The notes under the pieces were generated by a model that was given only the letters and a program-made list of their open reading frames with translations, did no database searches and was not told the origin of the DNA. Shown here in pieces: positions 46,296 to 62,025 of a stretch of DNA of 64,000 bases; within the stretch, counting starts at the first letter, position 1, and every line of letters starts with the position of its first letter. The translations under genes were made by a program, and so were the position numbers. Origin of the DNA: Bryobacterales bacterium (GTDB taxonomy: Bacteria; Acidobacteriota; Terriglobia; Bryobacterales; UBA6623); contig JAPPMG010000054.1 in NCBI GenBank assembly GCA_028819215.1, positions 14,541 to 78,540 of the forward strand, read 5' to 3'.

Positions 46296-48634
46296 TGTAT
46301 GTAGAGAAATTCGTTCGACGCGATCAGGATGCGGCACATGGCCTTCCAAGCCGCGTCCCTGTCCCCCGTGGCCGCTTCGTAGCGGTCCAAGAACGCGCTC
46401 CAGCTCTCGGTCTCATCGGGCTCGGACGGACGTGAAAAGGCGATCTGGTGTGCTAATCCGATGCGTTCGGGGTCGCCCTCGAGGGTCTCTCGCGCCAGTC
46501 TTGCCGCGAAGCCGGCGGACGCCTCGTCCACCAAGTCGGAGTTCAGCATGAAGAGCGCCTGAGGGGCGACCATGGTCGCCCCGCGATCGCCATTGGAGGT
46601 GGACGGGCTGGCAAAGTCGAAAGCCGCGAACATCTCGTACAGGGCGCTGCGCAGCACCGGCAGATAGACGCTGCGCCGCCGCGTGTCGTACAGGGCCGGA
46701 TCCCGCGAACGCGACTGGGCGTTGAGATTCGCAAAGTTCTTGTGCGGGATGGTCTTGCCCCCCGTCGCAAAGTCCAAGCTGTCGGAGATGGCCAGTAGCG
46801 CGTCGCGCAACGTCTCGGCTTCCATTCGCCGGCGGTTGGCGTGGCTGAACTGGCGGTTGTCCGGGTCGGCTTCGGCATGCCCCTCGGTCGCTCTGGAAGA
46901 CAGCTGGTAGGCGTCCGAAAGCATGATCAAGCGGTGCATCGACTTGACCGACCAGCCACTTGCTTGGAACTGCAGCGCCAGCCAGTCCAGAAGTTCCGGG
47001 TGGTCCGGTGGTTCGCCAAGCTTGCCGAAGTTGTCGGGAGTGCGCACGATGCCTTCGCCGAAATGCCACTTCCAGATCCGGTTGACCATCACGCGGGCGG
47101 TCAGTGGATGGTGCTTGGAGGTCAGCCACTGCGCAAGCTCCAGCCTGCCGCTGCTTTGCGATCCGATCGGACTCTGCTGCTCTCTGGCCAGAATCGCGGG
47201 AAAGCGGCGCGGAGCGATCGGCCCGGGCGTGAGGTGGTTGCCGCTGATCATCAGCGGTAGGTCCGCAGCGTCCCCCTCCGCAACTGCCATCGCCTTGGGG
47301 ATGCCGTAGTACTCGTCGAGAGCGTCGCCCTCGGCCGCCTGCTGCGCCTCTACCACACGCTTGGGAGTGGTTGCTCGGTTGTAGTTCGTGACGAAGTCGT
47401 TGTGGTAGTCGAAGCGCTTCTCGATCTCGGAGAGTCGGCGGTTCTCTTCCGCGCTTGCGAGCGCCGTGGCATTGAGCTTGGAGGTGACCCGGTAGGTGAG
47501 CACCGTCTTGGTGCTGGTGAAGATGCCCAGCATGGAGTAGTAGTCGGCGCTGCGAATGGGGTCGAACTTGTGATCGTGGCAGCGGGCGCAATCGATGCTC
47601 AGCGCCATGAACGCGCGCGCGGTGGTGGCCAACTGTTCGTCCGCGAAGTCCAGTTTCTGCTTCACGGGGTCGTCTTCGCCAACCATCTTGGGGCCGAGCA
47701 TCAAGAAGCCGGTTGCGATCAATCCCTCTGCGCGATTGGCGTCGCCCCAGTCCGTGAGGATGTCGCCCGCCAGCTGTTCGCGCACGAACTCGTCATAGGG
47801 CTTGTCTTGATTGAACGCCCGGATCACGTAATCGCGGTAGCGCCAGGCGTCGCCGTGGACGATGTTGTCGTCCATCCCGTTGCTATCCGAATAGCGCGCA
47901 ACGTCCAGCCAGTGTCGACCCCAGCGCTCTCCGTAACGAGGTGATGCGAGCAGCCGGTCCACAACGCGCGTGAAGGCATCGTCTGACGCATCGGCGAGGA
48001 ATGCGCGGACTTCGTCCGGAGTGGGAAGCAAGCCGTGCAGGTCGAGCGTAGCTCGCCGAATCAGCGCTCGCTTGTCACTGGCCCCTACCGGCCTCAGGCC
48101 GACTCGTGCCCGGCCGATTCCTAGCAAGGCGTCGACCGCCGTATCGCCCGGCGGCATGGCCGGGGCCTGTAGCGGCTGGAAGGCCCAATGTGACCGTTCC
48201 TCGGCGGAAAAGCCATCAGACCGCGCGATCCCCTCCGGCGCCCGGGCCGGCTCGTGTTCGGGCCAGTTCGCGCCCGTATCGACCCATTTGGTCAGGATTG
48301 CGACCTCGCCAAGCGGCAGCTTCGCCTTGGGCGGCATTTGCAGCAGTGTGTCATGATTGATCGCGTGGATCAGCAGGCTCTGGGCCGCGCTGCCCGGCAC
48401 CACCGCGGGCCCCGAGCGACCGCCCTTGAGGATGCCGGCCAGTGAATCCAGGCGGAGCCCGGCTTGCCCCTCGCCGGCGTGGGGGCCGTGACAGGCGAAG
48501 CACCGGTTGGCCAAGATCGGGCGGACGTGCTTCTCGAAGAATGCGTGGTCTTGCGCCGTGACCGATATCGGCACAAGTCCAACCAAAGCCGCGATCCACA
48601 AGGCTGTCCCGTGCGAGGCCATGGTCTTGGGCAA
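46292..48634 (-). CDS. PSCyt/DUF1549/DUF1553 protein (Planctomycete-type cytochrome-c-motif protein)
   Basis: 780-aa ORF with a signal peptide, an N-terminal CFACHG, and a central DCARCHDHKFDPIRSADYY. ATG 48622 is an alternative start. Confidence 0.85.
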   Translation of the reverse strand: MPKTMASHGTALWIAALVGLVPISVTAQDHAFFEKHVRPILANRCFACHGPHAGEGQAGLRLDSLAGILKGGRSGPAVVPGSAAQSLLIHAINHDTLLQMPPKAKLPLGEVAILTKWVDTGANWPEHEPARAPEGIARSDGFSAEERSHWAFQPLQAPAMPPGDTAVDALLGIGRARVGLRPVGASDKRALIRRATLDLHGLLPTPDEVRAFLADASDDAFTRVVDRLLASPRYGERWGRHWLDVARYSDSNGMDDNIVHGDAWRYRDYVIRAFNQDKPYDEFVREQLAGDILTDWGDANRAEGLIATGFLMLGPKMVGEDDPVKQKLDFADEQLATTARAFMALSIDCARCHDHKFDPIRSADYYSMLGIFTSTKTVLTYRVTSKLNATALASAEENRRLSEIEKRFDYHNDFVTNYNRATTPKRVVEAQQAAEGDALDEYYGIPKAMAVAEGDAADLPLMISGNHLTPGPIAPRRFPAILAREQQSPIGSQSSGRLELAQWLTSKHHPLTARVMVNRIWKWHFGEGIVRTPDNFGKLGEPPDHPELLDWLALQFQASGWSVKSMHRLIMLSDAYQLSSRATEGHAEADPDNRQFSHANRRRMEAETLRDALLAISDSLDFATGGKTIPHKNFANLNAQSRSRDPALYDTRRRSVYLPVLRSALYEMFAAFDFASPSTSNGDRGATMVAPQALFMLNSDLVDEASAGFAARLARETLEGDPERIGLAHQIAFSRPSEPDETESWSAFLDRYEAATGDRDAAWKAMCRILIASNEFLYIQ

Positions 48635-48642
48635 AGCGTAGC

Positions 48643-50388
48643 ATGAGCGCCATCGATTGGAGCATTGTGATCGCGCTCAATGCCGGGATCATCCTGTACG
48701 GAATCGTTCGCGGGCGCGACACCAAGACTAGCTCCGATTGGTTCTTGGCGGGGCGGAGCTTGCCGTGGTGGATGATCGGGCTCTCGCTCTACGCCACCGC
48801 GATCGACGCCAGCGATCTCGTGGCCGATGCCGGTGGCACGTACGCCGTCGGAATGAGCTACTTGGTCACCAATTGGGTCGGCGTGACCTTGGGCTGGTTC
48901 CTGCTCGCGAATTGGATCGCGCTCCCGATGTACCGCGCGGGCATGTATACCAATGCCGAATACCTTGAAGCGCGCTTCAGTCTCTCCGCACGTGTGATCA
49001 GTGCCTTGGTTCAGGCCCTCTACCGCACGTTGGTCTTGGCGATCATCGCAATCACGCTCTACCTTCTGCTGGCGATCGTGTGCGGGTTGGGCACGAATGC
49101 GTGGTGGGGTGTCGTGCTGATCGCCGTGCTGGCAACCGCCTACACGTCGCTGGGCGGGCTGCGGGCGGTAGCGGTGACGGATGCACTGCAGAGCGTCGTA
49201 ATGGTCGTTGCGTCGTTCGCTCTGTTCTACGCCGTCTGGATGGCTGTTGGCGGTTGGGGCGGTGCGGGCGAACGACTCGAGAGCCACGAACCCGGCTTGT
49301 CGGCGCAGTTGCTGCATGCTGGCACCGATAACATCGCTGTCCAGGGCGTGGTCGGAGAGTCGCCGGAGACGGTGGCGCGGCGCCTTCTCGTCGGTGGCGA
49401 GCTGAGCCCGGACGGGGGAGAAATCGTCACGCGGAGTCCGGCTTGGTTAGTCTCGCTGGCTTGGCTGATCATTGGCCTGGGCTACGCCGTGGTCAATCAC
49501 ACGCAGTCCATGCGGCTGTTCGGGGCGCGCAGCGAGTGGGACCTGCGTATGGCCGTAGTCGTTTCGGGACTCGTATTGCTGGTCCTGAACTTCACCAACT
49601 TGTCGGTCGGCATCTTCGGACGGGCTCTCTATCCCGACCCTAGCTTGATGCCACTGGCCGCGGAGTTGCAGGTGCGGGACTCGACGTTCCCTCTGATCGT
49701 GCGGGAACTCACTTCGGCCGGACTGCGCGGCGTGATCGTCGCTGGCGTGGTCGCCGCTTGCTTTTCTACGTTCGACTCGATCGGCTCGACCGTGCCGTCG
49801 CTGCTCGTGCGCGACGTTCTTGCCCGCTTGTTCGTCAAGAACCGGCCTGACAGCTACTTCGTGTCGGCTAGCCGCTGGCTCACGCCCGTTGTAATCTTGG
49901 GGGCCTTTGCGTTCGTGCCCCTCATGATGCAAGAACGGGGCATGCTGATGGTGTTTCTGGACTGGGTAGGGGCGTTTGTCGTTCCGCTGCTGGCGGTATA
50001 TCTGATGGGCGCGTTTACCCGAGTTCACCGCTCCAGCGCGACTTGGGGGCTTGCGGTGGGAATCATCTACGGAACCCTGAAGTTGTTGGCACCTGTTCTG
50101 GCCCTCCGTTTTGGCGTCGCGCTCCTGCCCGCCATGCTGGTGAACAACTATGCCAGCACCGTCATCAGCCTGCTGCTCACAGTCGCCGCGATGCTAGCCG
50201 TATCGGCCGTGCGCGGCTGGGAGCCTTCCAGCCAGCCCCGGGAGCTGGCATTGGAAGGCTGGCTGCGCGACAGCCGCGCCGCGATTGCCGTCGCTGCAGG
50301 CGACCAGCGTCCCGTCGCAGTGCCGGTACTCTTGGCTGGCGCGATCGTCGCCATCGGCGCGGCGTTGAGCTTCGGTGTGTTCTGGTAG
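48643..50388 (+). CDS. sodium:solute symporter (SSS) family transporter
   Basis: 581-aa polytopic ORF. The N-terminus, WSIVIALNAGIILYGIVRGRDTKTSSDWFLAGRSLPWWMIGLSLYATAIDASD, is typical of the SSF family. Confidence 0.85.
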   Translation: MSAIDWSIVIALNAGIILYGIVRGRDTKTSSDWFLAGRSLPWWMIGLSLYATAIDASDLVADAGGTYAVGMSYLVTNWVGVTLGWFLLANWIALPMYRAGMYTNAEYLEARFSLSARVISALVQALYRTLVLAIIAITLYLLLAIVCGLGTNAWWGVVLIAVLATAYTSLGGLRAVAVTDALQSVVMVVASFALFYAVWMAVGGWGGAGERLESHEPGLSAQLLHAGTDNIAVQGVVGESPETVARRLLVGGELSPDGGEIVTRSPAWLVSLAWLIIGLGYAVVNHTQSMRLFGARSEWDLRMAVVVSGLVLLVLNFTNLSVGIFGRALYPDPSLMPLAAELQVRDSTFPLIVRELTSAGLRGVIVAGVVAACFSTFDSIGSTVPSLLVRDVLARLFVKNRPDSYFVSASRWLTPVVILGAFAFVPLMMQERGMLMVFLDWVGAFVVPLLAVYLMGAFTRVHRSSATWGLAVGIIYGTLKLLAPVLALRFGVALLPAMLVNNYASTVISLLLTVAAMLAVSAVRGWEPSSQPRELALEGWLRDSRAAIAVAAGDQRPVAVPVLLAGAIVAIGAALSFGVFW

Positions 50389-50417
50389 GCCAATAGCGCT
50401 GGGTGAGCGATTGCGCC

Positions 50418-51569
50418 ATGAAGATTCGCGACATCGAGGTCATCAACCTGTGCTTCGAATATCCGCTCGAGCGGCGGTTTCGTTATGCCGGCGGGACCTG
50501 CACGGGCCGCCTGACGACTCTGGTCAAGGTCCTCACCGACGAGGGCGTCGAGGGGCTGGGCTCGGTCTATTCGCATCCGGACTTGGTGCGGATAATCATC
50601 GAAGGCCAATTGCGCCCTCTTCTGGTGGGCGCTGATCCGCTCGAAGTCGAGGCGTGCTGGCAGCGCTGTTACGCGCTGACGCGCTGGTACGGGCGCAAGG
50701 GCGCCGCAGTCTCAGCCCTAGGCGGCATCGATATCGCCCTGTGGGACATCCGGGGCAAAGTCGAGGGAAAGCGGATCTGCGACCTGATCGGGCCAGCCAG
50801 AGCGGCAGTCCCCGCGTACGCCAGCGGCCTGCTCTGGGAGGGCGAGATCGGCGAACTCAGGGACGAAGCGCAATGTCATCTCGAACACGGTTTCCGCGCT
50901 GTCAAGATGCGGCTGGGAAGAGATCCTGACTATGACCGGGCAGCTCTGAGCGCCGTACGCGACACGATCGGCCCGGACGCACGCCTAATGGTCGATGGAA
51001 ATGCCCGCTATTCGCTGGGCGAGGCGCGCCAGATGGCACCGGATTGGCTCGCTGCCGGTGTGTTCTGGCTGGAGGAGCCCTTCGCCCCGGAGCAGCCCGA
51101 AGCGTTTCGGGCCCTGCGGCCCACCATCCCGGGGATTCCGTTGGCCGCCGGAGAGAACGAGTTTGGACGGCAAGGCTTCAAGGAGCTGATCGATGGCGGA
51201 GTGGTCGAGATCGCGCAGCCGGATTGCTGCCGTTGCGGGGGACTGACCGAGGCGCTGCGCATCGCCTCGGACGCAGCCGAGCGCGACGTCAGGATCGCGC
51301 CGCACACTTGGAGCGACGCGGTGGCGCTGACGGCCAACATGCACTTGGTAGCGGCGACTCCCCACGCCGTCACAGTAGAGGTGGACCAGACTGGCAATCC
51401 GTTCATCGAAGAGCTACTCGTCGGTGGACTGCCAATTGCGGGAGGTCAGCTAGAGCTGCCGCATTCGCCTGGCTTGGGTATCGAGCTGAACCAAGATACG
51501 GTTCGCAAGTACACCGTCCCGCGCGGTCAGGCCACTCCTCCCGGCAACTATTCCGACATGGTTTTTTGA
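50418..51569 (+). CDS. enolase-superfamily enzyme (mandelate racemase/muconate lactonizing family; sugar-acid dehydratase-like)
   Basis: Track ORF (GTG 50403) trimmed to ATG 50418. It has the KMRLG motif and metal-ligand motifs MVDGNARY, WLEEPF and AAGENE. Confidence 0.88.
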   Translation: MKIRDIEVINLCFEYPLERRFRYAGGTCTGRLTTLVKVLTDEGVEGLGSVYSHPDLVRIIIEGQLRPLLVGADPLEVEACWQRCYALTRWYGRKGAAVSALGGIDIALWDIRGKVEGKRICDLIGPARAAVPAYASGLLWEGEIGELRDEAQCHLEHGFRAVKMRLGRDPDYDRAALSAVRDTIGPDARLMVDGNARYSLGEARQMAPDWLAAGVFWLEEPFAPEQPEAFRALRPTIPGIPLAAGENEFGRQGFKELIDGGVVEIAQPDCCRCGGLTEALRIASDAAERDVRIAPHTWSDAVALTANMHLVAATPHAVTVEVDQTGNPFIEELLVGGLPIAGGQLELPHSPGLGIELNQDTVRKYTVPRGQATPPGNYSDMVF

Positions 51570-51740
51570 ACCTGCCGCGAGAGTCGACCTACTCACCGAG
51601 TCGACAAATCGTGATCATGAGCTTCTCAAGCTGTCATCGGTGGCAAGTTACAGACAACACAGCCCAACCTCGGAAAGGTATCCGGGCCTTAGCCGGGACC
51701 TCGCCATCGCGCCCCGGCCTGATTCGCCTAACGAATTCCG

Positions 51741-52460
51741 CTATCGTCGCCCCACCTTGCCGAGCTGCCAGACCTTCCGAGCGACGTCGGAAGAACCGCC
51801 CTCGCCGCGCGCATCGCGCTTCACCTCGCGCATCAGTTCAGTTGCGCTACCGAAGCACCTGATCTTCTCTGCTCCCCATTCATAGGTCGGCTTTGAAGAA
51901 GTGTTCTGCTCGCCGGCGAAGACCAAACATCCGGTTACTCGCATTCCCGGCGCCCAATCTCGGATGCCCCTGACATTGAGTGCAATTCGCCGCAAGGTCT
52001 CTTGGAAATGCGACATGGGAAGGCGCCCATGCTTTGTTTCGATGACCCATAGCCCGCGCGGCGTCGCTACCAAGTGGTCGATATCTCCAACCTTGGCGAT
52101 ATGCTGTACGTTGTGCGCTACTGCACACCGCTCTCGAGTCAGCGCGTACTCGATCGCCTGTCCGACCCTCTCCTCGGCGCGCACGCCTTTCCTCATGTGT
52201 GGCAATCGCCAGCCTTTCGCGAGTTCGTGCAACGTCGCGCCTAGCGTCGCTGCACCCGGTATCAACACGAGCAAGATCGCCCATCCCGCTCCCAGCTCCA
52301 TGGTGACCATCCCGGCGAGCCCGCCGCAAAGCCATCCGGCTGCGAAAGTCGCAAGGACGGTGGTATCCGCGATTCGGTCAAGGAGCTTTCGGCGAAGCCA
52401 CTCGCCAGGGTTTCGTTTCATTCCGTTTCTCTCAATCCGGCCCAGCACCAAGGCGTTCAT
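51741..52460 (-). CDS. NERD (nuclease-related domain) protein with N-terminal transmembrane segments
   Basis: 239-aa ORF. It has two hydrophobic segments (VLATFAAGWLCGGLAGMV, WAILLVLIPGAATLGATL), then GVRAEERVGQAIEYAL...VGDIDHLVATPRGLWVIETKHGRL. Confidence 0.75.
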   Translation of the reverse strand: MNALVLGRIERNGMKRNPGEWLRRKLLDRIADTTVLATFAAGWLCGGLAGMVTMELGAGWAILLVLIPGAATLGATLHELAKGWRLPHMRKGVRAEERVGQAIEYALTRERCAVAHNVQHIAKVGDIDHLVATPRGLWVIETKHGRLPMSHFQETLRRIALNVRGIRDWAPGMRVTGCLVFAGEQNTSSKPTYEWGAEKIRCFGSATELMREVKRDARGEGGSSDVARKVWQLGKVGRR

Positions 52461-52632
52461 CCAAGTGTAGTTTCCGACCTACGTCATCTCCCCGGAGGTG
52501 GTCCAAGACCGTTCTCCGCTATGTGGCCTCCCGGGGCTGGACTATGTTGTATGCAACTTGCCGCGGATGGCAGCTTGAGGGTTCATTATCGCCGTTGGAC
52601 GATTGGGTATCGGAGGTCATACACTTAGCCCG

Positions 52633-52833
52633 CTACACAGCTGGCTCGTCATTTTGCGCGGCTAAAGTCGCTCCCACGAGCCGATGGATGGTAGTTTCGA
52701 TCGCAAGGATTCGCATGGGTTTGGTGCAGCGCTTGATGTCGCCTCTGAGCTGTTCCGGCAGATTCTTTGAGTGCTGCCGCATACGGTGCTCGATCCAGAG
52801 GCTGGGGCCACGCTCCAGAGCGACACATCCCGG
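52633..52833 (-). pseudogene. C-terminal remnant of an IS256/Mutator-family transposase
   Basis: Found by manual translation; it is too short and lacks a start, so it is not in the track. HSKNLPEQLRGDIKRCTKPMRILAIETTIHRLVGATLAAQNDEPAV* aligns without gaps to the IS256 C-terminal consensus STNLIERLNQEVRRREKIIRIFPNQTSANRLIGAVLMDLHDEW as I remember it. About 17 of 43 residues are identical, including RI, RL.GA.L and DE. No upstream catalytic region or terminal repeats were seen. Confidence 0.5.
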
Positions 52834-52909
52834 CTATTTCCCAAGCCCACCTCCGGCCGCATCGCAGTAAGAGTCATCAATCACTTGGGAGAGAGGGTAT
52901 TCAAACTCT

Positions 52910-52942
52910 AGGTTAATTCAAAATCAAACTTTGAATTAACCT
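52910..52942. promoter_or_regulatory. perfect 13-bp inverted repeat AGGTTAATTCAAA-N7-TTTGAATTAACCT in an AT-rich leader
   Basis: Arms at 52910..52922 and 52930..52942 lie 23-55 bp upstream of the AAA ATPase ATG (52965). This is the only strongly AT-rich stretch in this intergenic region. Confidence 0.45.
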
Positions 52943-52964
52943 AATTTTTCCTAGACTGTGTTCA

Positions 52965-54140
52965 ATGATCGAGCGCGACCTCTACCCAAGGCTAACGGAG
53001 GCGGCCCAGAAGTGGCCGTCGATCACGCTCACTGGGCCGAGGCAGAGCGGTAAGACGACGCTGTGCCGTGCCACGTTCCCGCAGCACCCGTACGCGACAC
53101 TGGAAGCCCCGGACGTTAGGGCCTTCGCTCTTGACGATCCCCGCGCGTTCCTAGCCCAGTTTCCCGAAGGTGCCATCCTTGACGAAATCCAGAGAGCGCC
53201 AGACTTGCTCTCGTACCTGCAGGGCATCATCGACGCAGGCCCGGTGCCTGGTCGCTGGATACTCATCGGCTCGCAGAATCTCTCTCTGCTTCAGTCGGTC
53301 AGCCAGTCGTTGGCCGGAAGGACGGCGGTTCATAGGCTGCTTCCGCTGACGCGAGGCGAAACGATGCGATTTCCCCGGTGTCCCGAGACTCTCGCTGAGA
53401 GTCTCCTCACCGGATCATACCCACGCATATTCGATGCCAATCTCGATGCTGCGGACTGGCTCGGTTCCTACGTCGCCACGTACATCGAACGCGATGTACG
53501 GATGATCAGGAGCGTTGGCGATCTCACGACGTTCCAGCGCTTCGTAGTACTCTGTGCCGGCCGAACCGCGCAGTTGCTCAACTACTCGTCACTAGCCGCG
53601 GATTGCGGCATCTCGCAGCCGACCGCGAAGACTTGGCTCGGTATCCTCGAGACCAGCTATCTCGTCTTTCGCCTCCCCCCGCTTCATGCAAATCTGCGCA
53701 AGCGGCTCGTGAGAATGCCCAAGCTCCATTTCTACGATTCTGGACTTGTCTGCTGGTTGCTGGGTATCCGAACGCCCGAACAACTCCTCACGCATCCGCT
53801 TCGCGGACCGATCTTCGAGACTTGGGTTGCCTCCGAAATTGCGAAACGCTGGGCCAATCGCGGCGAAGCCAGCGGACTATCGTTCTACCGAAATCAGAAC
53901 GGGGCGGAAGCCGACCTTCTCATCGAGCGCCCCTCCGGGGTCACGCTTATTGAAGCCAAATCTGCCGAGACAGCGTCCACACGCCTGCTCGACGGTGCCA
54001 GACGCGTCCGAAGGCAGCTCGACCGAGCGACCGGCCAATGCTCCGTCGTCATAGTCTATGGCGGCGATCAACCGCAGCGCCGCGGAACAGATTGGTTGGT
54101 TCCTTGGAGGGAACTGCACCAGTTTGACTGGGATGCGTGA
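52965..54140 (+). CDS. AAA+ ATPase with C-terminal DUF4143 domain
   Basis: 391-aa ORF with Walker A GPRQSGKTTL and the Walker B-like AILDEIQRAPDLL. The C-terminal half is DUF4143-like (HFYDSGLVCWLLG...GPIFETWVASEI). Confidence 0.85.
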   Translation: MIERDLYPRLTEAAQKWPSITLTGPRQSGKTTLCRATFPQHPYATLEAPDVRAFALDDPRAFLAQFPEGAILDEIQRAPDLLSYLQGIIDAGPVPGRWILIGSQNLSLLQSVSQSLAGRTAVHRLLPLTRGETMRFPRCPETLAESLLTGSYPRIFDANLDAADWLGSYVATYIERDVRMIRSVGDLTTFQRFVVLCAGRTAQLLNYSSLAADCGISQPTAKTWLGILETSYLVFRLPPLHANLRKRLVRMPKLHFYDSGLVCWLLGIRTPEQLLTHPLRGPIFETWVASEIAKRWANRGEASGLSFYRNQNGAEADLLIERPSGVTLIEAKSAETASTRLLDGARRVRRQLDRATGQCSVVIVYGGDQPQRRGTDWLVPWRELHQFDWDA

Positions 54141-54381
54141 AGTTCTGTCGGCGCCGTGAGAGTCGGCGACCACCCAATCGCTGGAGCCAGAGTTATAGCG
54201 CTGTGCCCCAACGGGACATGGAAGCGAGGGCCGACCAACGAGAGAGACACAGCAGCGCCTAACAGACCGACCAGCCCAAACACATCAAATACGGTATGCA
54301 TTTTCGACACAATTTGGCTACGCCATATGGGCACAGTATCGCTGCCCTTAGCGTATGTAACCTGATGGAATGCCGGGTTGT

Positions 54382-54636
54382 CTAATCGGATGTGGTATGC
54401 TCCAATGAACGGTTTCGTGCTCCACCGTGTGTCGCCAGACGACTATGGTTGTGGATCCGAGTCCTATCCCGTCCAAGTGGTGGCTCTAGGTTGAAGGTCG
54501 GCTTAATTTCTACTCCGAGCTTCCTGAGTTCCAACTCAAGCCGCTCATAGGCAGTTACGACGGCGACATCGACACTTGGGTTCTGACTGAATGCCCTGTC
54601 TCGATCCAATAGCAGTTTCTCTTGATTCGTCTTCAT
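54382..54636 (-). CDS. small hypothetical protein, second gene of the protease cassette
   Basis: Track ORF 54382..54681 trimmed to ATG 54636, which lies 1 nt after the protease stop (54638..54640). The protein begins MKTNQEKLLLDRDRAFSQNPSVDVAVVTAYERLELELRKLGVEIKP... The gene is low in GC. No family recognised. Confidence 0.45.
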   Translation of the reverse strand: MKTNQEKLLLDRDRAFSQNPSVDVAVVTAYERLELELRKLGVEIKPTFNLEPPLGRDRTRIHNHSRLATHGGARNRSLEHTTSD

Positions 54637-54637
54637 G

Positions 54638-55486
54638 TTAGAAGTACCCCCTTGTATGCACGAAGGAGAATAGTTGTTCACGACTCATATAATCCTTCAA
54701 TAACTCGAAGTAGAGCTTCACATACTGGTATAGCCTCGAATTAGCCGAGAGATCTTCGATCTGCAGGCCGACCTCGTCACGTAAGGTCCGTATATCGATT
54801 CCACGTGCGTGGGAATGCCACCTGGAAGTTTCGTTGAGTAGGTCTGCAATCTCCTGTGCTCGTGTCACTTTCATCTCATCTGTGACCGGCTTCTTCCTCG
54901 TTTCAGTATTCGTCCACCCCTTAAACTTGTATGTTGAAAGCCATTTAACTAACAGTTCCACGGACAGCTCTCGGGCCTGCTCAAATTGGTATAATTCACC
55001 AAGATCGAGCTTGCTCAGAAGTGCATATTCTGCCGTGCTGAGGTCATTTGTTGCTGCCTTTTTGTTGAGACGTTCGAACTGATTCAAATAGGAAAGTGCT
55101 GGGACTAATTTCCCGTCTTTCTCGATCTGAGGGTCGATTGGTCCTAAACAAGAGAAATAATCCATCATGATGCGGTCTGCGCTCAAGGCAAATATGGTTC
55201 CGGCAGACATTGCGCGGTCCGGTACGATGACCGCAACTTCATCGAAGGCCCACCGCAGAGTCGTAACAATCCGTTCTACAACTTCGACAATTCCTCCGGG
55301 AGTGTCGAGTATTACAGCTATCGAGTTCTTCTTCTCGGAGAGTTTATCTATTGCGTCTCGTATGCGAAGATCGAGTCCAGGAACTATCGGACTGACAATT
55401 GCAACGACATCTGCGTTCAGTTCGGCACCGATGGTTTCAATGTGAGTGTCTAACTCATGCTTGATCTGTGAATCGACCGGTCTCAT
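54638..55486 (-). CDS. Clp/crotonase-fold serine protease, SDH (serine dehydrogenase proteinase, S49-like) family
   Basis: 282-aa ORF. AVILDTPGGIVEVVERIV...VPDRAMSAGTIFALSADRIMMDYFSCLGPIDPQ matches the ClpP/SppA-like oxyanion and catalytic-Ser layout. No signal peptide or TM segment is present. The gene is markedly AT-richer than its surroundings. Confidence 0.7.
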   Translation of the reverse strand: MRPVDSQIKHELDTHIETIGAELNADVVAIVSPIVPGLDLRIRDAIDKLSEKKNSIAVILDTPGGIVEVVERIVTTLRWAFDEVAVIVPDRAMSAGTIFALSADRIMMDYFSCLGPIDPQIEKDGKLVPALSYLNQFERLNKKAATNDLSTAEYALLSKLDLGELYQFEQARELSVELLVKWLSTYKFKGWTNTETRKKPVTDEMKVTRAQEIADLLNETSRWHSHARGIDIRTLRDEVGLQIEDLSANSRLYQYVKLYFELLKDYMSREQLFSFVHTRGYF

Positions 55487-55788
55487 CTAGTTACGATTGG
55501 CAACGTGCGGTTCGCAGGAGTCGATCCGAGGTATCAAGGAGCCACGCCGCAATTCGGTGACGTCGAATCCAGACGACACAGTGTGATCTCAGACCCCTGC
55601 CTTCTAAGTGTACGTTATCTATGGTTGCACGATGGGATATGTCAATGGGCGTGGACGGGCAAGGCCAACGAGACGTCTTCCCAGCAGCGACATGGCTTCG
55701 TATCGACGAGTGGAAGACTTCGAAACGATGCCGTGGACGTCCACGCGACCGGCTTGAAGATCCTGCACGTTCGTCCGAGGCTGAAGTT

Positions 55789-56577
55789 ATGATTCGTGAC
55801 ACAGACGCACTCCGAGCCCTATTGTGCGAGAGCCTCGGCCAAGAAGTGCAAGTCGAACCGCGCCCGGATGGTGCGCTCATGTTGCGCACACACTTTGCGT
55901 TTCCCGATGGCGACCGCCTACCGATTCATGTCTCCATATCAGCGTCGGGCGGCCTTCGACTGTCAGACCGTGGGCATACGCTGATGCGCATCAGTTACGA
56001 CCACGATGTCGACTCATTCATGGACGGTACGCGCGGAATGATCCTAGAGCGCATCATGGGGGAAACCGGGCTTCGCTGGGATGGCGATGGTGGCGTGCTC
56101 TGCGTTGACACCGAGTTCGAGAGCCTACCAGAAGCTATCTTCGCCTTCGGGCAAGCGCTGACAAGGGTCTATGACCTGACGCTGCTCTCCCGTTCCAATG
56201 TCGACTCAACTTTCTATGACGACTTAGCCGACCTCCTCTTCAGATATGTGGGCGAAGCGCAAATCGAACGCGACTTCCAGCCGGCTGTGCCCAGTGCTGA
56301 CGCCTATCCGGTGGACTATCGGATAGAAGGGAAGAGCGGCGTCCCGCTTTTCCTGTTTGGTGTACCGAACCGCGATAAGGTGCGCTTAACTACCATCGTG
56401 TTGTCGCACTTCCACAGGCACGAGTTGCATTTCGAGTCGATTCTTGTTTTTCAAGACCAAGCCGCGATTCCGAGGTTGGACCTTGCGAGGCTATCAGACG
56501 TTGGTGGAGACATGATTTCGTCGCTGGCTTCGCACGACGACTTGAATCGGAAGCTCCTCCAACGCGTCGCAGCTTGA
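55789..56577 (+). CDS. DUF1828/DUF1829-like protein
   Basis: Track ORF 55621..56577 trimmed to ATG 55789 (MIRDTDALRALLCESLG...). The pattern LRTHFAFPDGDRLPIHVSISASGGLRLSDRGHTLMRI resembles DUF1828 as I recall it. The assignment is tentative. Confidence 0.55.
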   Translation: MIRDTDALRALLCESLGQEVQVEPRPDGALMLRTHFAFPDGDRLPIHVSISASGGLRLSDRGHTLMRISYDHDVDSFMDGTRGMILERIMGETGLRWDGDGGVLCVDTEFESLPEAIFAFGQALTRVYDLTLLSRSNVDSTFYDDLADLLFRYVGEAQIERDFQPAVPSADAYPVDYRIEGKSGVPLFLFGVPNRDKVRLTTIVLSHFHRHELHFESILVFQDQAAIPRLDLARLSDVGGDMISSLASHDDLNRKLLQRVAA

Positions 56578-56606
56578 CAGCGTTCGCGGTCTCTTCCTGA
56601 TAGTCG

Positions 56607-57329
56607 TCAGCGGAACGTTACCAGATCCGGGGACGAGGCTAGGTGTGGCGTCTCGTTGAAGGCGTCCAGCGAGAAGCGCGAACCTTGGTACAGGAAGCTT
56701 GTCAGTGACGAGTTGCGGACCCGCCAGTTGATGTCCAGCGCGGCACGTGCCGGGGCTCCCAGGCATGATTGCAGGGCTACGCCGATCGGGCCTCCAGACG
56801 TGAATGCGACGAGGCGCAGCCCTCGCCCTGGCGTGTCGCGCAGCTGTGCCAGCGTCGTCTCGACTCGCTCCCTGAACTGCTGCCATGGAACGAGGTCCGG
56901 TTCCTGCATTTTGCCTTCGACCCAGCGCTCCATCACTGCCTCGAACATTCGCTGGAAGGGACGGTTGCGGTCCGCGCTGTCCCTGCCATCCAGCCACGCC
57001 TGCCACAGCGGCGCGAAAGACGGGTCCGTGGCAGCCAGACGCGGAGCGACTTCGGCGATTACGTCTTGGGCCTCGTATTCGTCCAGGCCGGGTAGCTCGG
57101 TCGCGGCTGGGAAGTCGCCTCCGTCGCCCCCATACCCTTGGGCTGCTGCTTCGTACGATTCTCGCTGGCGCCGCAGGCTTCCGTGAAACGCCAGATCAAA
57201 GCGGATGCCGTGGGACTTCCAATATCGCCCGAGAATCTGGCACTGCTGCCAGCCTGTTTCTGACAGCCGGTCTGGGTCGTCGGTAAACGCACACGCTTGC
57301 CCGTGGCGCACCAAGACTAGTCTGCCCAT
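56607..57329 (-). CDS. histidine phosphatase family protein (phosphoglycerate-mutase-like)
   Basis: 240-aa ORF with the N-terminal RHG motif LVLVRHGQ and the downstream HGSLRR. Confidence 0.85.
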   Translation of the reverse strand: MGRLVLVRHGQACAFTDDPDRLSETGWQQCQILGRYWKSHGIRFDLAFHGSLRRQRESYEAAAQGYGGDGGDFPAATELPGLDEYEAQDVIAEVAPRLAATDPSFAPLWQAWLDGRDSADRNRPFQRMFEAVMERWVEGKMQEPDLVPWQQFRERVETTLAQLRDTPGRGLRLVAFTSGGPIGVALQSCLGAPARAALDINWRVRNSSLTSFLYQGSRFSLDAFNETPHLASSPDLVTFR

Positions 57330-57367
57330 GCCGAATGCGCTCGCTCCTCGACGGGTGTCGTGCCCGC

Positions 57368-58813
57368 CTAGGCCAAGAGCGGTTGGATGATATTCCCGCC
57401 GACGTCGGTGAGTCGAAAGTCCCTGCCGCGAAAACGGAACGTGAGCCTTTCGTGGTCAATGCCCAGCAGGTGCAGGATCGTGGCTTGGACATCATGCACA
57501 TGCACGGGATCCTTGACGGCGGCGAATCCGATTTCGTCGGTCTCGCCGATATTCTGTCCCGGCTTCGTGCCGCCGCCGGCGAACCACATGGTGAACGCGT
57601 CGATGTGATGGTTCCTGCCAACGGTATCGCGAACCTCGCCCATCGGCGTGCGACCGAATTCGCCGCCCCAAACCACCAGCGTGTCTTCCAGCATTCCGCG
57701 CTGCTTCAGATCCATGATCAGGGCCTTGCAGGCCTGGTCGGCCGACAGGCAGACCTCATCCAGATCCTTGTCGAGAGTCTCGCCCGGACCGCCGTGGTGG
57801 TCCCAACTCGAGTGGTAGAGCTGCACAAAGCGCACGCCGCGCTCAACCAAGCGCCTCGCGAGCAGGCAGTTGTTGGCGAATGACCGCTCTCCGGGCTTGA
57901 CTCCGTAGAGGTCGAGAGTCGCCTGCGACTCGGTGGAGAAGTCGATCAGCTCCGGCCCGCTGGTTTGCATTCGGTGCGCCATTTCGTAGGCGGAGATGCG
58001 AGTCTCGATCTCCGGGTCGCCGGCTTGCTCCAAGTTGAGCCGGTTCAGGTCGAGGATCGCTTCGACGGTTGCAGCCTGCCGTTCGGACTCGAAGCCGGCG
58101 GGGCTGGTCATGTTGAGAATGGGCGCGCCTCCGCCGAGGAATGGAACGCCTTGGTGCGCGGTCGGCAGAAAGCCGCTGGTCCAGTTCATCGCGCCGCCGC
58201 GCGGCCCGCGCGGCCCCGATTGCAACACCACGAAGCTCGGCAGGTCTTCGGCTTCGCTGCCGATGCCGTAACTGACCCAAGCTCCCATGCTGGGACGCCC
58301 GAAAAACGGCGTGCCCGTGTTCATGAAGATCTTGGCCGGGGCGTGGTTGAAGTTCTCAGTGTGGACCGTGCGCACGAAGGTGACGTCATCCACGATTTGG
58401 GCGGTGTGGGGCAAGCACTCCGATACCCACTGGCCGGACTCGCCGTGCTGAGCGAACTTGCGCCGAGTGCCCAGCAGCTTCGGCGGGTTGTGGGTGAACG
58501 ACTCCATGAACGCGAAGCGCTTGCCTTCCATCAGCGACGGCGGCAGCGGCTGGCCGCTGAGCTTTTGCAGTTCGGGCTTGGGCTGGAACAGCTCGAACTG
58601 GCTGGGAGCTCCCGCCATGAACAGGTAGATGATGCTCTTCGCCCGCGGGCTGTGATGCATGCCGCGCCGCTCGGCGGGATTGGCATAGAGCGAATCGCCC
58701 ACGAAGAGAGAGGTCAGCCCTAGCTTGCCCAAGCCGACGCCGCAGTCTTGGAAGAGCTGGCGCCGGGTCCGCTGTCTCAGCACGGCGCGGTGGAGGTCGG
58801 TCGGGGGATTCAT
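57368..58813 (-). CDS. DUF1501 domain protein with twin-arginine signal (paralog 2)
   Basis: Track ORF (TTG 58834) trimmed to ATG 58813, 4 nt after the upstream gene's stop. TAT motif RTRRQLFQDCGVGLGKLGL. It is collinear with 44880..46295. Confidence 0.85.
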   Translation of the reverse strand: MNPPTDLHRAVLRQRTRRQLFQDCGVGLGKLGLTSLFVGDSLYANPAERRGMHHSPRAKSIIYLFMAGAPSQFELFQPKPELQKLSGQPLPPSLMEGKRFAFMESFTHNPPKLLGTRRKFAQHGESGQWVSECLPHTAQIVDDVTFVRTVHTENFNHAPAKIFMNTGTPFFGRPSMGAWVSYGIGSEAEDLPSFVVLQSGPRGPRGGAMNWTSGFLPTAHQGVPFLGGGAPILNMTSPAGFESERQAATVEAILDLNRLNLEQAGDPEIETRISAYEMAHRMQTSGPELIDFSTESQATLDLYGVKPGERSFANNCLLARRLVERGVRFVQLYHSSWDHHGGPGETLDKDLDEVCLSADQACKALIMDLKQRGMLEDTLVVWGGEFGRTPMGEVRDTVGRNHHIDAFTMWFAGGGTKPGQNIGETDEIGFAAVKDPVHVHDVQATILHLLGIDHERLTFRFRGRDFRLTDVGGNIIQPLLA

Positions 58814-58817
58814 CGCG

Positions 58818-61334
58818 CTATTGCCTCGTAACAAACTCGTCTAGGTTGAGCATCACTCGGGCGGCGGCCGTCCAAGCCGCCCCGCTGGCGGTGTCGGCCC
58901 CGGTCTTGCGCAGCGCTTCTGCGTCCGTGGCGAACGCATCGGTCATGTGGCTCAGGAAGCCTGCCAGCCGCTCCGTCTCTGGTGCCCGGGGCTGTCGGGC
59001 CAGGCAGATCTCGAAGGCTCGCCGAATGCGCTCTTCGCGATCGTCCGAGTACTCGCGAATGCGGGTTGCCAAGGCGCTCGCGAATTCGGTCTGTGACTCG
59101 TCGTTGAGCAGCGTCAGCGCCTGCAGCGGCGTGTTGGAGCGATTCCGGCGCGTGACGCTCTCCTGGGCGATCGGGGCATCGAACAGGATGAGCCCGGGGT
59201 GTGCCGCGGACCGGATGAAGTACGTGTACATGCCCCGCCGGAAACGGCTCTGCCCCTCGTCGGCCTTCCAGTTTCGATCCACCTGCGTGAACTGCCCGGC
59301 GCCTGCGGGTTGGGGCGGGTACACGCTGGGACCGCCCACGGCCGGCGCCAGCAGGCCGGACGCCGACAGCGCGGCATCGCGAATAATCTCCGCTTCTAGG
59401 CGGAGCCGGTTCTGGCGCGCCAGCAGCCGGTTGCCCGGGTCGACCGCAGCGGCATCGGCGCGATGGGCGGAAGCTTGGCGGTAGGTGGCCGAGTGCAGGA
59501 TCAGCCGGTGCATTTGCTTAAGATCCCAGCCGCTACGCACGAATTCCGAGGCCAGCCAGTCCAGCAGCTTCGGATGGCTGGGCGGATTGCCCTGGGTGCC
59601 GAAGTCGTTCTCCGTCTCGACGATTCCGATGCCGAAGTAGCGTTGCCAGAGTCGGTTCATGGTCACCCGCGGCGTGAGCGGATTGTCGTCGGCGACCAGC
59701 CAGCGGGCTAGGCCCAGCCGATTACGCGGTAGGTCGGGCCGCATCGCGGGCAGGACTCGCAGCGTACCCGGCTCGATCGCGTCGCCGCGACGGGTGAAGT
59801 CTCCCTGCACGTGGAGGTAGGCATCGCGCGGCTCCGGGAGGTCGCGCATGACCATCGTCCATGGGATCTTGGGCAGCTTCTTGCTGAGTTCGCCGATCTC
59901 TTTCAGCTTGGCCTCGAACTCGGGCACGCGGCTGGCGAATACCCGCTGCAACACGCTGTCTTGGACGGACGAGCGATCCTCCGGAGCCAAGGCGATGATG
60001 TCGCGGGCTCGTTCGATGTCTTCCATCTCGCCCGGAGGGAAGCGTTCACTCCAAGTTGCCTCTAGCGATGAGCTCAGGTCTTCGAGTTCGCCCTCCAGGC
60101 GGCCCAGCTCGCTCCGCACCGAGTCGCGCTCGGCCAGCGCGGCAGGCTCGGCCAGCTCGAGGATCGGATCCATCATGCGGCGGCGGCCCTCGCGCTCTTC
60201 GAGATTGCCTCCGATCTCGTCGACGTTGTTGAAAAAGGCGAAGACCTGGTAGAACTCGCGCTGCGAGATCGGATCGAACTTGTGGTCGTGGCAGCGCGCG
60301 CAGCCAAGCGTGAGCCCCAAGAAGGCTGCGCCAGTCGTACGGACGCGGTCGACCACCGCCTCGACACGATACTGTTCGAAGTCGGTGCCGCCCTCTTGGT
60401 TGATCATCGTATTGCGGTGGAAGCCGGTGGCGATGAGCTGGTCGCGCGTGGGATCAGGCAGCAAATCGCCGGCGACCTGTTCGATCACGAATTGATCAAA
60501 CGAAAGATTCTCGTTGAAGGCATTGATCACCCAATCGCGGTAGGGCCAGATCGAGCGTGGGCCGTCGATCGAGTAGCCGTTGGTGTCGGCATAGCGGGCG
60601 ATGTCGAGCCAGTGTCTGCCCCAGCGTTCGCCGTAGTGAGGAGACTCGAGCAGTCGCTCCACGAGGCGGCCGTACGCGCCGGGCTGGTTGTCCTCCAAGA
60701 AGGAGCGGACTTCTTCTGGCGTAGGCAGCAGTCCGGTCAGGTCGAGGGTAGTTCTGCGAATCAGAGTGCGGCGGTCGGCTGCGGGCGAAGGCTTCAAGGC
60801 TTCCTGTTCAAGCCTGCTCAGGATGAATGCGTCGATCGGGTTGCGACCCCACGCCGCGTTGCGCACTTGAGGCGGCTCGTGACGCACCACGGGCTTGAAC
60901 GACCACAGCGCCTCGGACGCTTGCGGATCACCTGCCGGGCGGCCCCACGCGGCGCCTCCCTGGACCCAGGCGCGCAGAGCATCGACCTCGGAGGCTGGCA
61001 GCGCTCCCGTCGGCGGCATCTTCAGGGCGCCGCTTTGTTCGACGGCTGCGATCAGGACGCTGTCGGACGGACTGCCTGGCACCAAGCTCGGCCCGCGAGA
61101 GCCACCCCGGAGCAGTGATTCCCGGGACGTCATCGCCAGCCCGCCGCTAGCAACCGTATCGTTGTGGCAGCTCTGACACTTAGCGGCAAGCAGCGGTCGG
61201 ACTTCCTCTTCGAAGAAGCGACTGCCGTCATCTTGCGCGCAAAGGCTGGGGACGACGCATAACACGCCCCACCAACTAAGCGCCCGTTTCATCGCTGCCA
61301 ACATTCTACCCGATGACCCGGAGGTCTGAGACAT
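58818..61334 (-). CDS. PSCyt/DUF1549/DUF1553 protein (paralog 2)
   Basis: 838-aa ORF with CQSCHN near the N-terminus and GCARCHDHKFDPISQREFY centrally. ATG 61292 (MKRALSWWGVLCVV...) is an alternative start. Confidence 0.85.
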   Translation of the reverse strand: MSQTSGSSGRMLAAMKRALSWWGVLCVVPSLCAQDDGSRFFEEEVRPLLAAKCQSCHNDTVASGGLAMTSRESLLRGGSRGPSLVPGSPSDSVLIAAVEQSGALKMPPTGALPASEVDALRAWVQGGAAWGRPAGDPQASEALWSFKPVVRHEPPQVRNAAWGRNPIDAFILSRLEQEALKPSPAADRRTLIRRTTLDLTGLLPTPEEVRSFLEDNQPGAYGRLVERLLESPHYGERWGRHWLDIARYADTNGYSIDGPRSIWPYRDWVINAFNENLSFDQFVIEQVAGDLLPDPTRDQLIATGFHRNTMINQEGGTDFEQYRVEAVVDRVRTTGAAFLGLTLGCARCHDHKFDPISQREFYQVFAFFNNVDEIGGNLEEREGRRRMMDPILELAEPAALAERDSVRSELGRLEGELEDLSSSLEATWSERFPPGEMEDIERARDIIALAPEDRSSVQDSVLQRVFASRVPEFEAKLKEIGELSKKLPKIPWTMVMRDLPEPRDAYLHVQGDFTRRGDAIEPGTLRVLPAMRPDLPRNRLGLARWLVADDNPLTPRVTMNRLWQRYFGIGIVETENDFGTQGNPPSHPKLLDWLASEFVRSGWDLKQMHRLILHSATYRQASAHRADAAAVDPGNRLLARQNRLRLEAEIIRDAALSASGLLAPAVGGPSVYPPQPAGAGQFTQVDRNWKADEGQSRFRRGMYTYFIRSAAHPGLILFDAPIAQESVTRRNRSNTPLQALTLLNDESQTEFASALATRIREYSDDREERIRRAFEICLARQPRAPETERLAGFLSHMTDAFATDAEALRKTGADTASGAAWTAAARVMLNLDEFVTRQ

Positions 61335-61694
61335 ATCTTGGGGGAGTGTAGCGTGATCGATTCCGCCTTCTATGCAGGTCGATAGAGCACTCTATCGTGC
61401 GGGATAAGCATCAGATTATGAAGCAGTTAACTAGGTCTAGAGACCTGTTTGAGGCCTAGTTCGGAGAGCGCCTGCGCGGCTCACGCCGTCTCTGCGAAAC
61501 CGAAGATTAATGGACCCTGGCGGTGGTCCGATTGCGCTGGCACGAGTGCAGCTATTGACTCCAACTCCGGCTGTCGGCAGCGCTGCCGATCGCAAATGTG
61601 CAGGGTTTCGGGGCGTTTCCGCTACGAGCTTCGGCCTCGCTCACCGGTGGAGCCGCGCTCGAGGACAGCTATCTGCGGCTGCTCGGAGGCTGGC

Positions 61695-61916
61695 TCATGT
61701 GGATTCCCACAAATTGCCGAGCATGTCGTAGATGGCGTCGATCACATCGACATCGAAGAACTGCTCTAGGACGGCATACGCGATGATGATCGCGATACCG
61801 ATCTTCTTCCACGCCAAGTGGAACAGTTGTTCGATCGGGCCGCGCTCTGGCTGAACCTCTAGCTCTGATCGACCGGTCCCTATGGATTCGTCTAGACCCT
61901 TGCGAGTCTTTGTCAC
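61695..61916 (-). CDS. small hypothetical protein with one hydrophobic segment
   Basis: 73-aa ORF with the hydrophobic segment KKIGIAIIIAYAVL. It is AT-richer than its neighbours and lies downstream of, and co-directional with, the lipoprotein gene. Support is weak. Confidence 0.35.
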   Translation of the reverse strand: MTKTRKGLDESIGTGRSELEVQPERGPIEQLFHLAWKKIGIAIIIAYAVLEQFFDVDVIDAIYDMLGNLWEST

Positions 61917-62025
61917 TTGATTAGTCTCCCGAGTGTGGCCGCTTGACAGGTGCCAGATGAAACCGCGGACAGGATTCTAGCAGCGTTCGGCGGGCCTCCC
62001 AACGTATGGGCGAATGGAGATCCCG

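Follow-up and report, generated by a model that had tools for sequence, protein, structure and literature searches.

The slot between two core genes and its turnover

The DNA analysed here, which we call the window, is a stretch of 64,000 nt from a Bryobacterales bacterium (Acidobacteriota; GCA_028819215.1, contig JAPPMG010000054.1). Our subject is a block of about 5 kb that lies in the window between an enolase-superfamily gene and a histidine phosphatase gene, and above all a pair of genes within it that encode a ClpP-fold serine protease and a small partner protein. Genes were identified from a listing of open reading frames (ORFs) together with Pfam scans of the window proteins, and defence genes with PADLOC v2 profiles. 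A preliminary description of this DNA had placed five genes between the two flanking genes, namely those for a NERD protein, a stub of an IS256 transposase, an ATPase, a protease and a DUF1828-like protein, and all of them are present. The slot and its flanks are as follows.

51570..56606, no strand: variable cargo slot, from the enolase stop codon to the histidine phosphatase gene
50403..51569, plus strand: left core flank, enolase-superfamily (MR_MLE) gene, assigned with Pfam
56607..57329, minus strand: right core flank, His_Phos_1 gene, followed by DUF1501 and PSCyt genes, assigned with Pfam

Composition is heterogeneous across the block and gene orientations alternate, as had been stated before. 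The guanine-plus-cytosine (GC) content is 0.562 in the block and 0.622 in the window. The protease gene stands at 0.475, with a third-codon-position value (GC3) of 0.52, as compared with 0.73–0.83 in the flanking core genes, and the earlier hand counts of 23 G+C out of 60 at 54661–54720 and 42 out of 60 at 50281–50340 prove exact. The reading frames of all five protein genes in the block are intact, and their catalytic or nucleotide-binding motifs are kept.

An enolase protein search of species-representative genomes returned 73 loci. The closest eight (L001–L008; 75–93% identity) belong to Bryobacterales or Terriglobia metagenome-assembled genomes (MAGs), and L138, which is closer still, has a DNA identity of about 93.6%; these are the nine relatives compared. 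Synteny holds for the SSS transporter and enolase genes in the compared loci, and for the histidine phosphatase, DUF1501 and PSCyt genes in every one that extends to them. Both flanks are present in L002, L003, L007, L008 and L138, and L004 is partial, its locus ending within the His_Phos gene. DNA homology to L001–L005 ends at 51565 and restarts at 56588–56611, and the gap between these points measures 0.7 kb in L002, ~2 kb in L007, ~4.8 kb in L003, ~5 kb in L008, ~9.4 kb in L004 and more than 10 kb in L001. L138 is collinear with the window over 46000–54220 and 56588–61998, and carries the NERD gene, the transposase stub, the palindrome described below and the ATPase gene. One segment of the window is missing from it.

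54221..56587, no strand: segment missing from L138 (small gene, protease gene and DUF1828 gene), where L138 has 157 bp

The cargo that other relatives carry at this site includes a ResIII/RE_endonuc protein of 1060–1076 amino acids (aa) and an N6_N4 methylase of 919–934 aa (PADLOC MTase_III, 1384 bits in L001), with a PIN gene embedded within this type III restriction-modification (R-M) system. The R-M genes are intact at the slot in L001, L004 and L005. Uma2, Mrr_cat, DUF2513 and a low-GC HNH effector-like protein make up the other cargo. The recognised defence genes in the slot (MTase_III, REase_III/ResIII, PIN, HNH effector-like, Uma2 and Mrr_cat) are those of the relatives. The HNH protein, of 416 aa, is encoded by a low-GC (0.46) gene at L001 12525–13775 on the minus strand; its N-terminal HNH domain resembles PDC-M68A and the SAVED-HNH effectors of cyclic-oligonucleotide-based anti-phage signalling systems (CBASS), and a P-loop-like segment is present as well. 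This gene, too, reached the slot recently.

Even at about 94% genome identity the cargo has turned over between flanks that are kept. The preliminary description had taken the block for an accessory region resembling a defence island, and the comparison of 51.6–56.6 kb with nine relatives that share syntenic flanks bears this out: position and content are clearly not conserved together among close relatives, and the genes map outside housekeeping families. We consider it likely that the block is a recombination and insertion hotspot, that is, a small defence island between two Bryobacterales core genes, occupied by a mosaic of independent tenants and not by one system. Whole alleles of the slot would be exchanged by homologous recombination through the conserved flanks. 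In defence islands and hotspots generally, the flanks are conserved and close relatives differ in cargo, and the cargo here is of the familiar sort, with R-M, toxin-antitoxin (TA)-type, nuclease and ATPase genes, debris of insertion sequences (IS) and compositionally foreign inserts. Some features weigh against this reading or set the block apart. The block is tiny (5 kb) as compared with typical defence islands; no integrase, tRNA, flanking direct repeat or target-site duplication was found at its boundaries; and the window holds no experimentally validated defence system in intact form, the validated type III R-M having been lost here and the PADLOC candidates being PDC-S01 and a partial PDC-M24B only.

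Could the five genes instead be one coherent, cooperating defence system? They are contiguous, and nuclease, ATPase and protease-type domains are typical of defence. The components, however, occur separately: L138 carries just the NERD and ATPase genes, L002 and L007 just DUF1828, and L003 and L006 just the ATPase, which in L004 stands with type III R-M. Furthermore, the protease pair recurs in 50 or more unrelated contexts without any other conserved neighbour, orientations alternate and GC differs from gene to gene. We give the idea of a single system hardly any credence. It is also quite improbable that the block is inert debris of decaying, horizontally acquired genes. A transposase stub and a methylase stub are indeed present, no validated system is intact, and L138 does without half of the four tenant modules, namely the protease pair and DUF1828. 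Against this stand the five intact frames with their preserved motifs, and orthologues in relatives that are 86–97% identical, with zero frameshifts.

Two further observations concern the block and its surroundings. An 88-codon minus-strand ORF at 54068–54334, which overlaps the 3′ end of the ATPase gene, was judged unconserved: similarity between the window and L005 ends well inside it, and its upstream part is missing in L003 and L006. An Rfam scan of the block gave zero matches. Farther out, two paralogous DUF1501 and PSCyt/PSD gene pairs (~37–45% identity), at window 44880–48634 and 57368–61334, both on the minus strand, flank the segment of transporter, enolase, hotspot and phosphatase on its two sides, an arrangement kept in relatives.

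The protease and its small partner

The preliminary description had recognised a low-GC Clp-fold serine protease in the block, and this assignment holds; the 84-codon gene that follows it had been overlooked. The features of the pair are these.

54638..55486, minus strand: ClpP-fold serine protease, probably of SDH/S49 type (PF01972, E 3e-20)
54382..54636, minus strand: 84-aa partner protein; the junction reads TAA-C-ATG, so that the gene starts one base past the protease stop
54425..55626, minus strand: minimal shared mobile unit, the upstream region with both pair genes, delimited by DNA identity to L074

The protease matches PF01972 with 72.8 bits (cut-off 31.3), over residues 49–145 only. 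Against the NCBIfam SDH equivalog NF047768 it scores 84 bits, below the 250-bit cut-off, and it also matches NfeD1b_N (1.5e-9) and SppA_dom (2e-4). Its match to phrog_11747, of unknown function, reaches 1.3e-53. There are more than 2000 homologues; the top 120 are 67–89% identical and 271–303 aa long (most 282–287), and they are effectively unnamed, the sole name given by a source being ‘hypothetical protein’. Ser94, in the S-x-G-type motif VPDRAMSAGT, is invariant among 21 homologues.

A family hidden Markov model (HMM) finds a homologue of the small partner, 54–84 aa long, right after the protease in 47 of 51 loci of metagenomic, viral and genomic origin. The offset between the two genes is mostly -4 to +2 nt and reaches +32. 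The partner family, with 79 representative clusters, has the motif NPxVD...LExxLxxLGVxxKPxYxLxPPLG. It evolves faster than the protease, with identities to the window copy of 13–71% as compared with mostly 46–89% for the protease. In one protein, P0423 (398 aa), the protease is fused to two tandem partner units, which may be a Rosetta-stone fusion or an artefact of assembly or frameshift. No third conserved gene was found around the pair.

The small partner has no match in Pfam, PADLOC or the PDB, and a Pfam scan of 27 partners gave scattered chance matches only. Both proteins are absent from PADLOC v2, where the Escherichia coli homologues likewise have no match. The literature searched on PF01972, SDH, S49 or ClpP-like proteases in defence held nothing relevant, for the E. 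coli homologues as well, and profile searches of solved structures with the protease, partner and DUF1828 alignments yielded no credible match.

Two known systems invite comparison. The window protease belongs to a fold family in common with NfeD/stomatin and SppA, S49-type ClpP-fold Ser-Lys peptidases, and the N-terminal protease of NfeD acts on the product of its operon partner. Unlike these, the window protease has neither membrane segments nor a stomatin partner, and its C-terminal half differs. The second system is ietAS, in which the protease IetS is subtilisin-like rather than ClpP-fold. Described as a serine protease toxin with an AAA ATPase antitoxin that serves as both plasmid stabiliser and defence system, ietAS is likewise a two-gene module with a serine protease effector on mobile DNA (PMC13069673). 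Its partner, however, is a large ATPase and ours is small (~60–80 aa); homology was undetected, with zero PADLOC match.

How mobile is the pair? The window copy and L074 are 84% identical in DNA over 1203 bp (54425–55626), and the context in L074 is unrelated and flanked by IS genes. The GC of loci that host the pair ranges from 0.33 to 0.71. The analysis shows that the low-GC pair was acquired horizontally. Its neighbours include type I, II and III R-M genes, MNT/HepT, another AAA_14-DUF4143 (PDC-S01-like) ATPase, SMODS, DUF1156/DUF499-HEPN, AAA_15 and SLFN genes, a patatin CBASS operon with BrxR, and IS elements. On a Methylosinus plasmid the pair lies near Fic and repA. On a Rhizobium gallicum plasmid (L146 2039–4883) it is directly downstream of multiubiquitin-domain, ThiF-family and DUF6527 genes, which form a cluster for ubiquitin-like conjugation, of a kind that has been linked to defence.

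In E. coli, the pair occurs in 20 of 5426 complete genomes. One such pair is WP_021518647.1 with WP_021518646.1, and WP_000081325.1 is a variant. The E. coli protease is 41% identical to the window protease and receives the SDH family name from PGAP, the NCBI annotation pipeline, and a 56-aa ORF directly abuts it (L147 4923–5996). At all six E. coli lambdoid prophage sites examined (L147, L149–L153) the pair stands directly after the CI-like (LexA family) repressor gene, on the repressor strand; the N or Ral gene comes next at three of the six, three repressor alleles are represented, and at two sites a HicAB module lies beside the pair. The interval between cI and N is known as a mosaic slot, holding rexAB in lambda and bstA in BTP1 (PMC8585504). 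The E. coli pair thus occupies the same slot as two sets of abortive-infection genes, RexAB of lambda and BstA of Salmonella phage BTP1. The resemblance is positional: there is no sequence or domain relationship to RexAB or BstA, the present module consisting of a ClpP-fold serine protease and a partner of 56–84 aa, and the window pair is chromosomal, outside any prophage.

The association with phages raises the question of whether the pair might be a leftover head-maturation (prohead) protease with a scaffold fragment, without a cellular role. Weak matches to head-maturation proteases exist (phrog_53, 3e-5; NF045542, 3e-6), and distant homologues of the protease are found in phage genomes. 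Those phage homologues, however, lie in accessory or immunity regions and not in head modules, and zero capsid, portal or terminase genes stand beside the pair in any locus. The best PHROG match is the far stronger one of unknown function given above, and the protease shows strong purifying conservation across the top 120 homologues, with the partner kept in nearly every locus. A prohead origin is, in our view, very improbable.

Another possibility is a peptide-maturation module, akin to those for ribosomally synthesised and post-translationally modified peptides (RiPPs) or for signalling peptides, in which the protease would trim the small protein into a peptide. The partner has the size of a precursor, a conserved N-terminal part and a PPLG-type motif, with a dedicated protease adjacent; L075 and L129 have a radical SAM gene adjoining that of the protease; and the fusion protein carries tandem partner units. 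The radical SAM neighbour, however, is restricted to one closely related locus set. The partner lacks both a signal peptide and a hypervariable core and is conserved to its C-terminus, no transporter is associated with the pair, and the pair is found mostly beside R-M, TA and CBASS genes and the prophage repressor. We regard peptide maturation as unlikely. We conclude that the protease and its partner are autonomous and probably constitute a mobile module of two genes, complete in itself and of the TA or abortive-infection kind.

The other tenants of the slot

The remaining features, from left to right, are the following.

51586..51673, no strand: left arm of an imperfect inverted repeat that brackets the NERD gene
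51741..52460, minus strand: membrane-anchored NERD nuclease-domain protein (PF08378, E 6.8e-9, 36.7 bits, cut-off 22.1)
52531..52618, no strand: right arm of the inverted repeat, just downstream of the stop of the transposase remnant
52645..52791, minus strand: decayed C-terminal remnant of an IS256/Mutator-family transposase (Transposase_mut, sub-threshold)
52789..52911, plus strand: C-terminal stub (40 codons and stop) of a type III R-M methyltransferase, by homology to the L001 methylase
52909..52943, plus strand: perfect palindrome with 14-nt arms and a 7-nt spacer, overlapping the methylase stop (TAG), 22 nt before the ATPase ATG
52965..54140, plus strand: AAA_14 ATPase fused to a DUF4143 PD-(D/E)xK nuclease-like domain (Pfam and PADLOC PDC-S01)
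55789..56577, plus strand: DUF1828-domain protein of 262 aa (PF08861, E 3.5e-13)

The NERD protein has two hydrophobic segments, residues 34–53 and 56–80, ahead of its nuclease domain, and it shows a D...ExK-type motif (DIDHLV...VIETK). Its true start is probably M14 at 52421, because homologues and a 226-aa NCBI record agree with it. The orthologue in L138 is 97% identical, and the gene is missing from the other eight relatives (L001–L008). Homologues are annotated as NERD or nuclease-related in NCBI records; PADLOC gave no match to the window protein. ZwsA, an RNA endonuclease that on its own defends against RNA phages, also has a NERD nuclease domain (bioRxiv 10.64898/2026.04.06.716636). 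In contrast, ZwsA is multidomain (VHS, DUF647, NERD and S4), and the window protein, of 226–239 aa, comprises two transmembrane segments and NERD.

The two arms of the inverted repeat share a 49-nt core at 82% identity that extends to 88 nt at ~75% with gaps; L138 has the repeat too, with arms of 74 nt. The transposase remnant next to it, a 65-aa translation, matches Pfam Transposase_mut with E 0.007 and 15.7 bits, below the 21-bit cut-off, over profile positions 327–375 of 379. The IS256-type C-terminus named in the preliminary description stands as a remnant, for which the orthologous 67-aa ORF of L138 has a precomputed PF00872 match, graded ‘weak’ and independent of the window scan, although the window score itself is below cut-off. 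No complete IS256 element with a DDE transposase and terminal inverted repeats was found in the window, where ~50 C-terminal codons are left. The right arm is likely to be an IS end. It reaches the transposase stop, as an IS end would, so that the NERD gene may be a passenger enclosed by two IS ends in inverted orientation. The picture is not clean, since L006 shares 51570–51627, about half of the left arm, while lacking the NERD gene; the repeat may derive from IS ends or from ancestral sequence duplicated in inverted orientation.

Adjoining the transposase stub, and absent from the earlier reading, is what remains of a methylase. Positions 52789–52908 encode a stretch 70% identical to residues 889–928 of the 931-aa methylase at L001:18142–20937, and DNA homology to the R-M-bearing relatives L001, L004 and L005 begins at 52790. 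Intact mod and res genes were not found in the window, mod being reduced to this 40-codon stub. The comparison shows that an ancestral type III-like R-M system (ResIII nuclease/helicase, PIN and N6_N4 methylase), as deduced from the relatives, once lay upstream of the ATPase gene and was destroyed in this lineage. An IS would have disrupted mod, and Uma2, res, PIN and the greater part of mod would then have been lost by deletion; the NERD gene would have arrived between two inverted IS ends. Relative to type III R-M as the relatives have it at this site, with ResIII/RE_endonuc and MTase_III, the window keeps the last 40 mod codons, which are non-functional.

The ATPase, as had been proposed, is of the AAA+/DUF4143 type (AAA_14, 7.8e-22; DUF4143, 8.1e-48). 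Walker A (GPRQSGKT), Walker B (ILDE) and D...ExK motifs are intact, and the gene is found at this site in L001, L003–L006 and L138. It matches the PADLOC profile PDC-S01 (PDLC04790) over its full length (E 1.2e-98, 328.6 bits) and is a PDC-S01 candidate. PDC-S01, an ATPase fused to a PD-(D/E)xK domain, is reported to be the fourth commonest candidate defence system in prokaryotes and to be as yet unvalidated (PMC12988326), and DUF4143/COG1373 has been classed in the PD-(D/E)xK superfamily (PMC3424549). The window ATPase has both domains in the same architecture as PDC-S01 (COG1373), and differs in that its gene is preceded by a lineage-specific conserved palindrome.

This perfect palindrome had been noted earlier as an operator. 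The 14-7-14 structure at 52909–52943 holds, while the operator role is only one of several possibilities. Eight genomes have it, with one copy per locus and always in the same place, and it is kept without mod (L003, L006), with the mod stub (window, L138, L002) and without the ATPase gene (L002). Its arms are conserved and its spacer is variable, with 94.6% of cells paired; there is one compensatory pair, which is indistinguishable from shuffles, given little variation among the copies. As RNA it would fold with -17.4 kcal/mol (z -3.2), and a T-run that follows it, flagged as terminator-like, is present in the window only. The idea of a repeated cassette-boundary or recombination site was rejected: each locus has just one copy, and further half-sites are missing from the window. 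Possible functions are those of an operator, a transcript hairpin or terminator, or a deletion-prone module boundary.

The last tenant is confirmed as a DUF1828-like protein by its PF08861 match, with its start moved to 55789 on the strength of alignments. The long ORF 55621–56577 is an over-extension, judged by these alignments and by homologues of 259–262 aa. The protein matches phrog_5059 with 2.9e-31 and PDC-M24B with 2.6e-11, the latter partially, over profile positions 15–145 of 255 (the DUF1828 domain only); the partner PDC-M24A has no match among neighbouring proteins at E <= 0.5. An AlphaFold2 model was poor, with a shallow alignment and a predicted local distance difference test (pLDDT) score of 61.8, and Foldseek against the PDB gave nothing below E 0.3. 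Orthologues adjoin the histidine phosphatase gene in L002 and L007, and sit after the ATPase gene in L005. In three of four other contexts examined, a DUF1828 homologue lies between ResIII and N6_N4_Mtase genes, with MNT/HepT, HicB and M78-HTH genes; in the fourth it adjoins an AbiJ_NTD4 gene. We infer that DUF1828 genes travel as accessory passengers in type III-like R-M operons and that the window copy has been left without its operon.

Type III-like R-M operons with a cargo slot between res and mod were observed in several phyla (L001 14431–20937, L004, L005, L134–L136, L143). The ResIII nuclease in them is ~1015–1076 aa and the N6_N4 methylase ~919–982 aa, and the cargo is PIN, MNT/HepT, HicB, M78-HTH, DUF4411 or DUF1828, up to ~5.5 kb in L136. 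They depart from the usual type III R-M system in that cargo is embedded between res and mod, both in the relatives and in other phyla.

NERD and DUF1828 homologues, at 57–77% identity (73–77% for DUF1828), are found in MAGs named Caldilineaceae, Chloroflexota and Gammaproteobacteria. Many of these MAGs are of the same series (SB06xx bins) as the closest Bryobacterales relatives. This suggests a cross-phylum exchange within one habitat.

Possible roles in immunity and addiction

The preliminary description had found no system that it could name and had allowed that uncharacterised modules may be present. The first statement needs qualification, with the ATPase matching the candidate PDC-S01 and DUF1828 a part of PDC-M24B; the second is borne out by the protease pair. 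The membrane-anchored NERD protein and the PDC-S01 ATPase would each probably act as a stand-alone effector that cleaves nucleic acid. What, then, would the small partner of the protease do? It would probably bind and restrain the protease, or serve as its sensor or substrate. Infection, or loss of the partner, would free the protease and lead to degradation of host or phage proteins.

Tentatively, and as a reading that falls somewhat short of probable, we propose that the pair is a widespread and undescribed module for immunity or addiction, mobile between phyla, plasmids and prophages, which occupies the rexAB/bstA slot in E. coli lambdoid prophages and acts by partner-controlled proteolysis, in abortive infection or superinfection exclusion, and that DUF1828 proteins are dedicated passengers of the cargo slot in type III-like R-M operons. 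Several observations pull the other way. In L075, L129 and L133 the pair lies in purely metabolic or housekeeping contexts. The E. coli 56-aa ORF matches the partner HMM marginally, with ~6 bits and E 0.003 in a 5-sequence search. The AlphaFold2 model of the protease (pLDDT 60.9; a shallow alignment at >=70% identity) is too poor to support docking.

A defence hotspot is a known kind of thing, and the undescribed element here is the pair of protease and small protein. The hotspot is nevertheless documented for Bryobacterales, here known from MAGs only, and the slot offers a clear snapshot of turnover, whose apparent steps are the loss of R-M by way of IS activity, nested insertion and the exchange of alleles. 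The cargo-bearing operons suggest that type III-like R-M systems serve as scaffolds for embedded accessory genes such as DUF1828 and TA modules. Finally, with the E. coli pair in the repressor operon of prophages, protease-based exclusion would be directly testable in a model host.

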